Origin: Octopus vulgaris
Taxonomy: Eukaryota
DNA: 64,000 bases
Assembly (NCBI GenBank): GCA_951406725.2
Contig: OX597832.1
Coordinates: 35,712,001 to 35,776,000, forward strand
Direction of reading: 5' to 3'
This document shows, piece by piece, positions 1,936-51,748 of the stretch. Positions within the stretch are counted from its first letter, which is position 1; the number at the start of each line of letters is the position of its first letter. The notes under the pieces are model-generated. The model had not been told where the DNA came from. It made no database searches and saw only the letters and a list, made by a program, of their open reading frames with translations. The position numbers and the translations under genes were made by a program.

Positions 1936-2581
1936 GATGGTGATAATAACAATAATGATGGCACAAACATACTAACAGTAAATAAAGACAATAGATTGGT
2001 ATGTCACAAATTGTTCAGTTTGTTCTTTTTTTTTATATAGAGATTCTTTGCTAGTTATATAAATGGTCCTTACTAAATGTAAATTCATTGTGTTTGCTGA
2101 GTAGATTCCCAATCAGTCATCTTGAGTGCCAGCATCAAGTAATTAGTTGTACAGATATAAAAGCAATAATATACAACCACAAATATACAACCACAAAAGA
2201 GGACCATTTTGACTGTAGTAGACTAATGAACAGACAAACCAATATGAAAGCAGTGAGTAACTATTTCAAAGAAAGGGTACGGCACTAGTAAAATGTCTGA
2301 GAGTAGGATGCCTATTGGAGAATTGACAATTTCTTTCCATGAGACATGTCAGACTGTAATTTTCACAGGATCCAAAGCAGAAGCGTTGACAAACTGATGA
2401 AAAAGATTCAATTCCATAAATAACAGTATGGTGTCATCCTTCATGTGGAATTGTATTTAAAATAACTTTGAATGCATAATATACAAAAGAAAGGTGTTCT
2501 AAATACAGAACACAAATTAATAGAGGGATATGGAGGAAGGGTTTATTTGTTTGTTCTACCTACCTGTCCACCTGCCCGCCC

Positions 2582-2687
2582 TCCCACCCACCCATAACCC
2601 ACCAAAACTCAAAACCCACCCACCCATAACCCACCAAAACTCAAAACCCACCCACCTACCTACCTACCTACCTACCTATCTATCTAT
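2582..2687 (+). repeat. 33-bp tandem duplication followed by (ACCT)n grading into (ATCT)n
   Basis: CCCATAACCCACCAAAACTCAAAACCCACCCA occurs twice, then CCTACCTA... changes to CTATCTATCTAT directly before the LINE. Confidence 0.85.
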
Positions 2688-3910
2688 GAAGGGCGAATGG
2701 CACCGCGAGTGTCGCGTTGCTCTCAAGCAACTCTGCCGTCCTGGGTCGACCTTGAGTGACTTCAACACAACCAAAGCATTCTATAGGGGATTAGTGGAGG
2801 GGAGGTACGACGACGAGCTCGGGGCGAACCTGGACGTCGACGAGGAGTACCTGACCCGCCTGTTTAGGATGACTTTCGGGCCAGGGCCCATGGACAACTT
2901 CCAGAGATCCCTGGCCTGGCAGTGTTACCGAGAAGCGCTACCTGTTCGGGATAAGCTCTACAGACACGGTTCAAGAAACACGGGGCCGACCTGCCCGAGA
3001 TGCGGTCAGAGCGACGAAACCGTTCTGCACGCACTCGTGCAGTGTCCAACAATTTCCGACCTGTGGGCTTGTGTCGAACAACTGCTGTCACGTGTGGGAT
3101 GAGTCGGTTTATCAGCTGAGTCTATTGTCAATATTGTCACGCCTCCTTCCTTCAAACGGGAAGGAAGAACTATTTTCATCATCCTTGTGGCTATGGCGAA
3201 AGATTGTATCTGGTGGACGCGTCTGAAAGGATTGGAGACAAACACTTTCCTCTCTGGTCAATCTCTCATCAACTTCTTCAAGTACCACTTGAAAAGGAAA
3301 GTGAGAGTAGAGAGGCAAGTTTTGTCTAGCGAATGTTTTTAAAAAAAGATGGGTGAATGTAGCAAGGATGGCACGTATGAATGACGAAGCCACCTTGAGC
3401 TTAATCCTATGAACCCAGAAATTGAAAACAGAGGGTTACCCACTTGCAAACAAATGTGGTAACATATAACAATATTGACCAAGGTTACCATGGTCTTTTT
3501 CGTAGGCTTTTCTTCCCACGGATAAACCTTACTTGCTTTCCCCTTTACACCATATATCATAACACTGTGATACACAATCCCTATTGATCGTTCTTTTTTT
3601 TTTTTGTTTTTTTTCCTCTTCCCCTTTTTCCCCTTTTTTCTTCTTTTTTCCTTTCTCTTTTCTTATGTTCCTTTTCCTTTTCTTTTTTTTTTTTTCTTTT
3701 TATTTTTTATTTTATTTATTTATTTATTTATTTAAAAAAAATTTTTTTTTTGTTCTTGCCTTCCCTTTTACGATCCCTCTTGATCGAAAACCTACGCCAC
3801 CCCCCCTTTTTTTCCTTTTGTTTTTTGCTTTTTTCATCCCCCAAAAGAAAAGCTCTACCTTGTAACTTGTCCCATCTGTGTGCAGCCCTGTGTGGCCAAT
3901 ACAGAAACTT
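2688..3910 (+). mobile_element. 5'-truncated Tx1/L1-clade non-LTR retrotransposon (ORF2 C-terminus plus 3' UTR)
   Basis: Translation contains a zf-RVT-type motif (LAWQCYREALPVRDKL...CPRCGQSDETVLHALVQCP). The frame continues past an in-frame TGA at 3100 and a homopolymer frameshift near 3340 to a stop at 3410-3412. A pyrimidine-rich UTR ends GGCCAATACAGAAACTT followed by (ATCT)n. CpG-rich, so relatively young. Confidence 0.88.
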
Positions 3911-19010: not shown

Positions 19011-19498
19011 TTGTTGTATTTGGGGATGGTCATGTTGCCAGTTTAGCCAATAAGACACATGCACTATATATTTGGTGTTAATTTGCTTCGGCATTATCTT
19101 ATTTTTACGTTAATCATATTTCGGCCAGAGTTCTTTCATCACTCTTCTGTGACCTCATCAGTGGTCCTTTGCTTTCTTCTTTCTTATTTGTGTGTCTTTC
19201 CTTACTAAAGATCAGCCATTTTGTATTTTGTATTCCTATTGTATGTGTCTTTATTTGCGCATGTGTATACCCTTATGTGTGTCTATATTTAGTAAGTGCG
19301 AGTGTGTGTGTGGGGAAGAGTGCCTATATTATCTGGTCTACGATTAATTCTTTATTTTTGTATATTTTCATCTGTCTTACCCGCTTGTGTTCTGGTGTTT
19401 GCTGAATTTCTCTTGAGAACATTCTTTTCTTTGTAGTTAGATCGTAGGTGATCTTCTAGCATATTGGATGTCCACTTAGTGGCCATCCCTTATTATAC
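19011..19498 (-). mobile_element. Probable Penelope-like element (pseudo-LTR) fragment between (TA)n tracts
   Basis: Contains a hammerhead-like core on the minus strand and is bounded by TA microsatellites. No ORF. Confidence 0.45.
19112..19166 (-). ncRNA. Degenerate type I hammerhead motif
   Basis: Minus strand: GACCA-CTGATGA-GGTCA..GAGT..ACTC-TGGCC-GAAATATG. Stem II GGTCA/TGGCC; the stem I partner is eroded. Confidence 0.5.
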
Positions 19499-21781: not shown

Positions 21782-23062
21782 TTAGGTCATCAAGTATAAA
21801 ATTCATAGTAAGGTTTATGCTAATCTTTTTCTGCCGCTCATTTTGCACCATTATTATATTTTGACAACCTTTATTTTTTGTTAGAAAGCTGACACATCTA
21901 TTTCTTTATTCTAACTCATTTTGCACTTTATAAAGTATTTATAAATCATTTTTCTTTTTTTTTGCTATTTTTGTTTAAAGGTGGATAAGTTGGAAGTTCA
22001 TACAGTTTTGAAATATGAGTTCTTTCTTGGAAATACAGCATCACACATAGCTCGGAATATTAATGGAGTATTTCATTATTTTATTATTACACAGCAGACA
22101 GTATCAAATTGGTTTGCAAAATTTTGTTCTGGTAACTTCGACCTCACAAATGAGCAATGCAGTCGACATGAAACAAAGACGGATATTGATGAAATGAAAG
22201 CCACTGTTGAGTCAGATCCATCTCAAAACGCCCATGAATTATCGTTGTTGTTTGGTGTTAGTAAGCAAACAATATTGACTCACCTTGTTCAAATCGGTAA
22301 AGTGAAAAAGTTGGATAAGTTGGTTCCAAATGAACTCAATGAAAATCAGAAACAGCAACGTTTGGAAGCCTGCATTATTCTAATTTCCTGACACAAAAAT
22401 GAATTATTTTTTAATCGAATTGTGATGAGAAATAGATCCAATACAACAACTTTAAATGTTTAACACAATGGTTGGACAAAGACAACCCCCCAAAACACAA
22501 TCCAAAAAGCAAAATTCATCAAAAGAAGCTGATGGTGTGTGTTTGGTGGTCTGGCGCAGGTGTGATCCATTATGATTTCATTAAACCTGGCTCATCAATC
22601 ATGGCCAAAGTATACTGCAATCACTGGACCAAATGATGCAGAAACTTACAAAATAACCCAAAAACCTAGATTGGTCAACAGATCCACTCCTATTTTACTG
22701 CAAGACAATGTCAGACATTGCAAAAATGACATTGGCAAATCTACAGGGGTTGGAAGTTCTCCATCATCCACCATACTCACCTGATCTTGCCCCCACTGAC
22801 TACCACTTCTTCCAGAATTTGGGTGACTCTTTGATAGGAAAAAAATTTAACTCCAACGATGCGGTAAAGCAGGCCTTCCAAGATTTTATTGACCCTAGAT
22901 TGCCAAGCTTTTACAGTTCTGGGCTGGACAAGCTACCGTTGAAATGGCAAAAGTGTGTTGATAATATGGGTGCATACTTTGATGAATAAAACTATTCCTT
23001 GTATTTATAACATATTAGCAAATTTTTTTTCTTTTCTACAAATTTCATACTTGACGACCTAA
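21782..23062 (+). mobile_element. Full-length (1281 bp) mariner transposon, cecropia/Hsmar1-like, inactive
   Basis: TIRs TTAGGTCATCAAGTATAAAATT / AATTTCATACTTGACGACCTAA, flanked by TA at 21780-21781 and 23063-23064. Confidence 0.93.
21981..22989 (+). pseudogene. Mariner DD34D transposase pseudogene
   Basis: HTH region (KYEFFLGNTASHIARNINGVF...WFAKFCSGNFDL), LVPNEL (WVPHEL-like), LLQDN, HPPYSPDLAPTDYHFF and terminal YFDE. Stop at 22389 and several frameshifts. Confidence 0.92.
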
Positions 23063-49327: not shown

Positions 49328-50590
49328 TTAAATTTCTGTCCCCAGTTTGCTATTTCTCGAATTGTATGCCAAGGTGAGTCTCTTTTTCCTTAGGGGTGAG
49401 TGTTGGGGGTTTGATAAATTGTTGTGTTGGCATGTTTCTGTGGGGGCAGGGTTGGGATTATTGGCAGGTGGGGTAGGAAGGGGATTGGTGTCTGCATTGG
49501 AAGGACTAGTTAAAGTGGGGATTGGAGGGACTGGAGTGGGGGAAGGATGGGGACGGGAGTCCTCAGGTGGTGAACTTTTCCTCTTTCTTCTTTTTCCTCT
49601 GGTCACCATCGTCCACTCACGATTCTCTGTTTCTTGCTCCTCCACTTTTCTCGCTCCTTCAGTCAGTAGAGGTGCAATTAATTTTTCACTGGGGCCAACT
49701 AGTGGTGTTAGTGCTGGTAGTGGAGGGCAGTCTATGCTAATGTGGCCTTTCTGACCACACTTGAAACATCGCAGTTTCCTGCTCTCCACTAACATTCTCA
49801 ATGTTCTGTCTTGGCCTATCCAAATGGTCTCAACTATGTTTTCTAGCATTTCTGGGGAGGCCTCAACTATCATTTCAATCCTTTGCCCTTGCCAGTTGCA
49901 TTGCAAGACTTTGATAATTATAATAGCTGCCACAATCCAGCCAACCTCCACCCTTATCCGAGAAGCTCATCTCTCAAGCTAAGTTGGGAAGAGCACCACC
50001 TCTGCTGTATTTCTGGAAGTCATAGAATAATACTTGACACTTTCTTCTGTTTTAAACCCCTCCTCCACTGTGATGTACTTGCTTCCTCTGGTAACATATG
50101 TAATGTTGCTCCAAATGTCTTTCAGATATTTTTCTATCTTTTTCCCTTGATACAATCTTTATTCTTTGCTTTTCCAAATCAAACAGTTTATACACAACTG
50201 TTTCCTTTTCCACTCTATGACTTACTTCCTCCTTTGCCAGGGTCACAACAATTTCGTGCACCTCTCTTTTTATTAAGTCTTTCAATTTCTCCAACTGTTC
50301 CTTACTTATTTGCACCTCCTCTCTTGAATTACCAGCCACTGCTGCAAACCTCCTTCCTCCCTTCACCTTGTCGATGCTATCAATGCATCTCAACAATTCC
50401 TCTTCAGAGAACTCTGTTGGAATACAACTGCATAACAGCACAACTCTCTCCCCCTCAAACCAGGGGGAAAACAGTATCAAATCCACCGAAAGGCAGACAA
50501 AACAAAATGTTCACACAAATACTTTTCAACATGACTTTCAAAATCAAACACTAACCTTTGGAGAAAGAACCCTTTTATGTTGTGTCTTTC
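49328..50590 (-). mobile_element. Decayed gag-like ORF1 with CCHC zinc knuckle (Tx1/L1-type LINE 5' part)
   Basis: Two consecutive minus-strand ORFs (50052..50486, 49328..49951) linked through stops and a frameshift. CFKCGQKGHISIDC (CX2CX4HX4C) is followed by EWTMVTRGKRRKRK and a Pro-rich tail. Confidence 0.75.
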
Positions 50591-50959
50591 AGCATAAACT
50601 AACTTTCCAGATGGGCAATATGGAAATCATACTGCCTGTGCTTTAAACCATCAAGTGACCACAAAGAATTATTTTTTTCATCTTTGCTTGCAAAAACAGA
50701 AAGCGGTGTTCTAATTCATATTGTATGAACTAGAAATTATCAGAATATAAATTTTTCATTCATAACACTACCAGGTCCCTAAGCATTTTTGTTGTCTAAA
50801 CAAATGCACACCGTTTATAACTTCTGATAATTATTTTCTGTGGATTGAAGCTTCTTTAGTTCTACTGGCTTCTCCTAGTTTTTTATCTCTTACTTCCCTT
50901 ACACAGTAAATATATAAAATAGCAAATATATTTTAAGAACTTGTAAATGTAAATAAGAA

Positions 50960-51380
50960 TTATCTCCCCTACACTGGAGCTCTCAAGGTTGGATCATACA
51001 TTATACATTTGGAAGCCACGATTAATTCGTGGCGAGGGAATTACCAAAAAGATAAACTAACATTTCTTTTTCTTATTTTTTTAACTTTTTGTTCCTCATT
51101 TAGTAATGAAAAATTATTTTGACGATTTCTGGTTGTATAATTTTGATTGTCATGTCTTTATAATGGATGTAAATAGTAAAATAGTTTTATATAATCCAGA
51201 CCTGAAGATTGGCAGTATAGTAAGATTGATATAGTATTGAATTTCGAAACCTTCTATTTTAGCAATACCGATAGATATATTGTCATGAAACGCATGTAGT
51301 CTATATAATTTAATATAGGATTCAGAATAAGAATTGTAGATATTAATTTTGATAAAATTTAATCATATATATCTCTATCA
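50960..51380 (+). mobile_element. Probable Penelope-like 3' end (endonuclease tail plus pseudo-LTR)
   Basis: LKVGSYIIH / KPRLIRGEGITKKIN* (one frameshift) resembles the E..I...KP.LNRD.G terminus of Penelope GIY-YIG domains. A hammerhead lies ~150 bp downstream on the same strand. Confidence 0.5.
51193..51322 (+). ncRNA. Type I hammerhead ribozyme, U.U variant with long stem II
   Basis: AGAC(51198)-CTGAAGA(51202-51208)-T-TGGCAGTATA...TATATTGTCA-T-GAAAC(51287-51291)-GCAT-GTA-GTCT(51299-51302). Extra pairing GTATTG/CAATAC and AATCC/GGATT. Confidence 0.78.
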
Positions 51381-51460
51381 TAGATAATGTCGTTCAATGT
51401 TGATTGAGTTGCTTGAAGGTGGTTCTGTCTCTTACACCTATCTCTCTCTCTCTCTCTCTG

Positions 51461-51500
<40 letters not shown>

Positions 51501-51748
51501 TATATATAAGAAAAAATGGCATTAAAATGACCTGGCAGATATCAAGTAAGCACTCAGTCATCATCATCATCATCATCAATCAGTGCTTAATGTCCACCTT
51601 CGATGTTGGCATGGGTGAGACAGTTTGACAGGATGATCTAGTGCAATATACTCTGTGGTGTGTGGTAGCATGTGAGTACATGTGTAAGTCATCTAAAAGT
51701 CCATAAGTCAGGAAAAAGATGCACACATATATCTGTCAATAGAGTGGG

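Follow-up and report, generated by a model that had tools for sequence, protein, structure and literature searches.

Is the motif at positions 51193..51322 of this octopus DNA a genuine hammerhead ribozyme, and if so, what does it belong to and does it still cut? The window, by which we mean the whole 64,000-nucleotide stretch analysed here, had been given a preliminary description that proposed an apparently intact type I hammerhead from a Penelope-like element (PLE), with an unusual U·U mispair at the base of stem II. Our analyses clearly show that the motif is a real hammerhead whose kind and setting are both known, distinguished by an unusually long arm and carried by a decayed copy. We consider it very probable that it belongs to the 3' end of an isolated Hydra-clade PLE copy that lacks its 5' part, that the parent element likely cut after GUA as a dimer, and that the copy in the window is itself a weak or dead ribozyme.

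A sequence check placed every stem and core base of the preliminary description at its proposed coordinate (Table 1), including the U·U mispair, a basal stem II helix of 10 bp (two of them G·U pairs) and above it the 6-bp helix GUAUUG/CAAUAC (51234-39 with 51263-68). Stem III has 2 bp as a monomer, A51290-U51297 and C51291-G51296. The motif combines the three-way-junction core CUGANGA/GAAA/UH with stems I to III and an open-ended stem I, as a type I hammerhead does; the usual, not obligatory, G10.1-C11.1 pair is replaced by U·U, as in 27 of 30 copies of its repeat family (U-A in two, U·C in one). From U10.1 to U11.1 inclusive, the stem II domain spans 78 nt. A 15-nt bulge separates stem I from the distal AAUCC/GGAUU helix, which is weak, with U at 51318 in 17 of the 29 other copies and only 70.7% of distal cells paired across nine related long-arm sequences. 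The type I hammerhead fold is real, and as predicted it is likely a self-cutting RNA; the cut proposed after A51298 agrees with hammerhead numbering, in which this base is N17.

Table 1. Features of the hammerhead motif and of the element that carries it, in window coordinates.
Feature	Position	Strand	Remarks
3' end (3' UTR / pseudo-LTR) of Hydra-clade Penelope-like retrotransposon family, 5'-truncated	50867..51441	+	common 3' end, variable 5' ends
Distal stem I, 5' strand AAUCC	51193..51197	+	pairs with GGAUU; weakly conserved extension
Stem I, 5' strand AGAC	51198..51201	+	covaries across families
Core CUGAAGA = C3-U4-G5-A6-N7-G8-A9	51202..51208	+	whole core unbroken in 27/30 family copies
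U10.1	51209	+	U in 30/30 family copies
Extended stem II domain	51210..51285	+	basal helix 51210-19/51276-85, upper helix 51234-39/51263-68
U11.1, U·U with 51209	51286	+	U 27, A 2, C 1 among 30 family copies
Core G12-A13-A14-A15.1 (GAAA)	51287..51290	+	identical in 30/30 family copies
Stem/loop III	51290..51297	+	ACGCAUGU, decayed form of family dimerisation palindrome ACGCGCGU
Predicted cut site, 3' of A17 in GUA	51298..51299	+	placed by hammerhead numbering
Stem I, 3' strand GUCU	51299..51302	+	pairs with AGAC
Distal stem I, 3' strand GGAUU	51318..51322	+	G51318 in only 12/29 other copies
(CT)n/(TA)n microsatellite	51442..51508	.	adjoins element 3' end; fits (TA)n target reported for Hydra elements

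The motif lies within a dispersed repeat. A first look with window positions 51150-51400 found 551 candidates in the 2.8-Gb genome, and among the 40 that were scored the full-length matches are 87-95% identical. At the 30 loci fetched, homology stops near 51441 next to microsatellites, and the 5' ends vary continuously from 50867 to about 51134. Most copies are 300-600 bp long, the window copy being 575 bp, and three of these loci (L021, L022 and L029) have inverted 5' pieces, as does L067. An exhaustive scan of the 64-kb window found no partner copy or motif of the family; a weak hammerhead-like match at 19161 on the minus strand, in which three of four stem I pairs can form and stem III is not a palindrome, is probably chance. 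Nor was a tandem array seen at the window locus, where the single copy lacks the head-to-tail units of a retrozyme. Upstream of the copy and on the opposite strand are two ORF fragments (49328-49966 and 50052-50510, both minus), one with a CCHC zinc knuckle, which resemble the first ORF of a LINE. Plus-strand fragments elsewhere resemble the N-terminus of a mariner transposase (21945-22391) and the zinc-knuckle region at the C-terminus of an RT protein from a non-LTR retrotransposon (2524-3102).

Within the family alignment, whose 30 copies are the best BLAST matches and hence biased toward similarity, the catalytic core has 2/329 substitutions against a background of 165/3,649 at the remaining non-CpG sites, a shortfall suggestive of selection acting in the source elements. 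The family is fixed for U·U, whose two positions vary in 3/60 cells, no less than background. CpG sites, by comparison, are substituted in 55/357 cells. The window copy departs from the commonest letter of the 29 others at 10 positions, three of them subfamily polymorphisms. Two of the differences fall in stem III, at 51294 and 51295, where 25/29 other copies have G and C, respectively; the commonest family form, ACGCGCGU (9/30), appears here as ACGCAUGU, a change of the sort that CpG decay would be expected to produce. The near-palindromic, dimer-type stem III of the preliminary description is thereby recognizable as a decayed exact palindrome. Its term "apparently intact" holds for the core; it does not hold for stem III, nor for stem II, where the window copy has several substitutions. 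The predicted energy of the in-register stem III self-duplex rises from -13.3 kcal/mol for the family form to +1.3 kcal/mol for the window copy; a shifted duplex is predicted at -5.8 kcal/mol, but with A15.1-U16.1 displaced. On these predictions, the window copy is probably a weak or dead ribozyme. It is a decayed fragment without sign of host function.

As a single strand, the window region is not unusually stable (folding z = +0.97), and its predicted minimum-energy monomer is a structure other than the catalytic fold: pair probabilities are about 0.1 for stem I and about 0.04 for stem III, and the catalytic junction makes up about 1e-4 of the predicted ensemble, both in the window copy and in two less decayed copies. 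In the minimum-energy fold, core CUGAA (51202-51206) pairs with a downstream UUCAG (51321-51325) that is retained in most family copies and in some related families; this pairing may be an off-switch or chance. The bulge is also predicted to form a hairpin of its own (51301-51318) that rivals stem I where G51318 is present, the base replaced by U in the 17 copies noted above. It is conceivable that the window copy itself is still active, whether as a monomer helped by its long stems or as a heterodimer in trans, and cuts host transcripts that run through it. All of its core nucleotides and its 4-bp stem I are unbroken, the two stem III pairs of the family type are both retained in its monomer, and hundreds of family copies could serve as partners. 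We nevertheless consider such activity unlikely, given the rarity of the predicted monomer catalytic fold even in the less decayed copies, the disrupted homodimer helix, and the finding that single PLE minimal hammerheads did not cleave (PMC4209133).

Standard models overlook the motif, as the preliminary description had anticipated. Rfam searches of the whole window and of the locus returned no hammerhead match (for the locus, against RF00163 at E<=10). Hammerhead_1 (RF00163) has the same topology as the window motif, yet it left 19/20 relatives unmatched; a long-arm relative with G·U at the stem II base (L144) reached 27 bits, under the 34-bit threshold. The suggestion that the U·U variant was the cause did not survive: a minimal hammerhead with G-C and a short-arm hammerhead with U-A, both from the same genome, were also missed, and the failure of Rfam therefore cannot be attributed to the U·U pair.

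The lack of an Rfam match and the unremarkable folding z are what a chance resemblance in AT-rich DNA would give, and the genome-wide evidence is where that idea fails. A descriptor search and a covariation analysis had been suggested for cephalopod genomes, and both, run in this genome, bear the motif out. The pattern CTGANGATT-N40-70-TGAAAC-N2-6-GTH, which places U at both 10.1 and 11.1, has 6,500 genome matches against 116 for its reversed control, a lower bound, as the window copy's own arm is too long for the 40-70-nt gap. With the same gap, and again as lower bounds, patterns with U at the first position only gave 1,147 matches against 320 controls, clear U-A families included, and those with U at the second only gave 4,722 against 402, among them families with G·U and with A-U. 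As a negative control, metagenome contigs were searched with a tight version of the long-arm U·U pattern; of the 14 matches, not one showed both stems.

For covariation, we assembled 75 loci (the window copy, four related loci, the first 30 U...U matches and 40 picked by hand), of which 74 could be parsed; thinning left 44 representatives. Stem I, which lies outside the search patterns and was invisible during hand-picking, is paired in 130/176 cells against 76.0±6.2 in shuffles, a value that 0/2000 shuffles reach and that slid partners (63-74) do not approach. Stem II pairs 2-5 are paired in 148/176 cells against 97.5±5.3 (0/2000 shuffles; slid 55-92), although hand-picking may have favoured this result. 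The first stem II pair is U·U in 20 representatives, G·U in 8, U-A in 6, A-U in 3 and something else in 7, proportions that mirror the search patterns, by which G-C was excluded. The second pair is U-A in 36/44, its U being forced by the pattern. Position 17 is A, U or C throughout, as the H of the pattern demands. Exact stem III palindromes occur in 22/44 representatives, in 9 different sequences, as a dimer-forming stem would have it. Across nine related long-arm sequences, two-sided changes affect 4/10 basal and 2/6 upper stem II pairs; the percentage paired in the named structure was reached by 5/500 shuffles and the covariation score by 21/500, and RNAalifold recovered the upper helix only, so that these sequences lend stem II moderate support. 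With covariation and a 6,500 to 116 excess of matches, chance resemblance retains next to no probability.

What, then, does the hammerhead belong to? The clearest evidence comes from a locus (L067, G000:C12:56402000-56411500) in which a broken ORF, encoding an RT segment (YRDD) and a GIY-YIG endonuclease, is followed downstream by a 3' end that matches the window copy at 85% identity over 588 bp; an inverted end copy abuts its truncated 5' side, and a microsatellite follows the copies. This is the arrangement expected of a PLE, a single ORF with RT and C-terminal GIY-YIG upstream of the hammerhead end, and it upholds the original assignment of the motif to such an element; the truncated window copy itself lacks the ORF. 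Upstream of the UTR, which is about 1 kb long, other longer copies likewise continue into coding sequence for GIY-YIG and then RT. The Hydra clade was defined by Craig, Yushenova, Rodriguez and Arkhipova in 2021 (PMC8557442) by DKT, CxCX5C, CxxC/CxH and RWK motifs and a (TA)n target. ORFs of the family and of a sister family carry DKT, CxCX5C, CxxC..E and CxH; in the translations, CxxC and CxH flank the catalytic E/N, and the cysteine pair is absent between the GIY and YIG halves. DKT is seen in another family locus (L055) and in unbroken sister ORFs, the region being missing from L067, and the RWK position reads KWK in a sister ORF, in a region absent from the family copies examined. The endonuclease is C-terminal in the linked ORFs. 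By these motifs and its target, the window repeat family is best placed as a member of the Hydra clade of PLEs.

The identification was made by eye, from motif likeness to published Hydra proteins, and by tblastn to intact sister ORFs. Pfam gave just one weak DUF match for five ORF fragments and otherwise did not recognise them. The ESM Atlas placed the RT piece in unnamed eukaryotic clusters; RVT_1 occurs in 11% of the members of one set, which is no more than a lead. A Naiad origin, raised by the annotation "HHR_half_core" of an octopus Naiad, was rejected on the C-terminal endonuclease and Hydra motifs of the linked ORF, the endonuclease of Naiad PLEs being N-terminal; four family motifs were also absent from the supplement text of the Naiad paper. 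In a separate locus (L043), the microsatellite that trails a family copy is followed directly by a piece of another Hydra-like family, a GIY-YIG fragment (oriented positions 2423-3050) that includes a CxCX5C linker; this suggests that elements cluster at (TA)n.

Among 150 scored of 9,226 candidates, no intact ORF of the window family was found, and the best RT match besides L067 was 76% identical. No pLTR-ORF-pLTR copy of the family was seen either, and the one direct pair checked, 2.3 kb apart, had no ORF in the interval. Together with the small size of most copies, and with the origin of animal retrozymes from PLE pLTRs, the dearth of intact ORFs might be read to mean that the window copy derives from a non-autonomous, protein-free, retrozyme-like repeat, not directly from an ORF-bearing element. 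We regard this as very unlikely, given a locus without a tandem array, 5' ends that vary continuously and mark no unit boundary, and longer copies in which a 3' UTR of about 1 kb leads into coding sequence for GIY-YIG and RT; for the family it is largely refuted by two such loci, L066 and L067.

The sister family, about 68% identical in RT, is better preserved. It has intact ORFs of 838-862 aa, and its hammerhead, which is short-armed and has U-A at 10.1-11.1, lies upstream of the open frame by about 270 nt. In one element (L161), the hammerhead-flanking region recurs about 6.3 kb downstream, around an intact ORF, and the partial tandem (pLTR) structure was seen only in this family. Its copies at L160-L163, L166 and L167 (e.g. 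G000:C7:50719500-50727500) are near-identical, as in a young Hydra-clade family; of the families seen here, this one is the best candidate for recent activity, and it offers a natural control against which to compare long-arm motifs. Another hammerhead, at L165 (plus strand, 7553), has an extra A, a 5-bp stem I and, at the stem II base, G·U; nearby on the opposite strand is a Hydra-like ORF of 960 aa. The classical PLE minimal hammerhead, with an extra A and a G-C pair, is very abundant genome-wide (e.g. L098-L107), its extra-base G-C pattern giving 10,303 matches against 501 for reversed-pattern controls.

It had been proposed that the U·U form is specific to this lineage and perhaps undescribed, and here the literature disagrees. 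Natural hammerheads with stem II starting U10.1-U11.1 were reported by Perreault in 2011 (PMC3088659), who called the variation rare and stated that U·U supports more cleavage than any other mispair there; the mispair and its position are the same, but what was rare in that survey is fixed here in families of thousands of copies. File S2 of Craig 2021 (PMC8557442) contains a CUGANGA-U ... U-GAA core in 14/25 Hydra-clade families (two rows identical), from Hydra, sea cucumber and copepod. One of them, Hydra-1_cRog, reads CUGAAGA-U-UGG ... CCA-U-GAAAC, like the window U·U core, and the published Hydra hammerheads, like those of the window family, are of type I, lie near the 3' end and have a short self-complementary stem III. 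That paper files U·U motifs as "canonical", and the passages of it consulted here neither discuss nor test the mispair.

Both the U·U change and the link to Hydra elements are thus already on record. The length of the arm differs: the A9-G12 segment has 78 nt in the window motif against 12-26 nt in the published Hydra table, in which the octopus member, Hydra-1_Obim, has a hammerhead of different sequence with a short arm, and longer arms in two spike-moss elements are marked as deviating (PMC8557442). The minimal hammerheads of Cervera and de la Pena 2014 (PMC4209133) resemble the present ones in their pseudo-LTRs, larger helix II, short palindromic helix III and mostly solo, truncated copies; unlike the window motif, their consensus has G10.1-C11.1, an extra base after A9 and a helix II of 6-8 bp. 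A literature text search found no paper on a 78-nt stem II arm or on long-arm cephalopod hammerheads, though the alignments of Lunse 2017 may hold such forms. The 78-nt stem II domain is the sole feature that we did not find in print.

How might the ribozyme have worked in the parent element? We propose that an element in partial tandem would bear the motif both upstream of its ORF and at the end of its 3' UTR. A read-through transcript would then carry two motifs, whose 8-nt stem III palindromes could pair into a stable helix III. Each core would cleave after A17 by standard hammerhead chemistry, in which G12 acts as the base and the 2'-OH of G8 as the acid. Such cleavage would trim unit-length element RNA, possibly with the aid of the element's protein. 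The U10.1·U11.1 pair would be tolerated in place of G-C, with support from the conserved U-A above it and from the long basal helix. On this proposal, dimeric cleavage after GUA is likely for the family ribozyme. Dimer cleavage of PLE hammerheads is credited in PMC6765202 to Lunse, Weinberg and Breaker 2017.

Whether the family needs to cut is a separate question. Cervera and de la Pena measured low cleavage for dimers (PMC4209133), and Frangieh 2024 (PMC11167929) found the hammerhead of an anole PLE to be protein-assisted and its cleavage dispensable for insertion in vitro, with no RNA ends at the site. Even at the level of the family, cleavage may or may not therefore be biologically needed. 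A step further, the long-arm U·U motif might be a hammerhead-derived structural signal for protein binding, packaging or RT priming, for which cutting in vivo is no longer needed. The unimpaired insertion of anole hammerhead mutants in vitro (PMC11167929), the rarity of the catalytic fold in predicted ensembles, and an arm far bigger than catalysis requires would all suit such a signal. That variation in the family is lowest at the catalytic positions (2/329), that stem I covaries across families and residue 17 is A, U or C (H being forced by the pattern), and that exact palindromes recur with differing sequences, as dimer catalysis would need, make it improbable, and we retain the dimeric, self-cutting parent as our preferred reading.

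It is tempting to speculate, though we hold the idea to be doubtful, that in the Hydra-clade elements of this genome a loose N10.1·U11.1 base, the near-fixed U-A and a two-helix stem II of 45-80 nt define a distinct hammerhead sub-type, in which the arm would act as a new tertiary brace or protein-docking switch that offsets the lost G-C pair and gates cleavage, for example through binding of the element's RT or contact with the 15-nt bulge of stem I. If this were true, the thousands of natural variants would constitute a ready mutational scan of 10.1-11.1.

The significance of the locus is modest. Nevertheless, U·U, G·U, A-U and U-A first stem II pairs occur in highly amplified retrotransposon families, and searches that limit size or require G-C therefore undercount hammerheads in such genomes. 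The sister families offer a natural series for testing the roles of the 10.1-11.1 pair and of the long arm.
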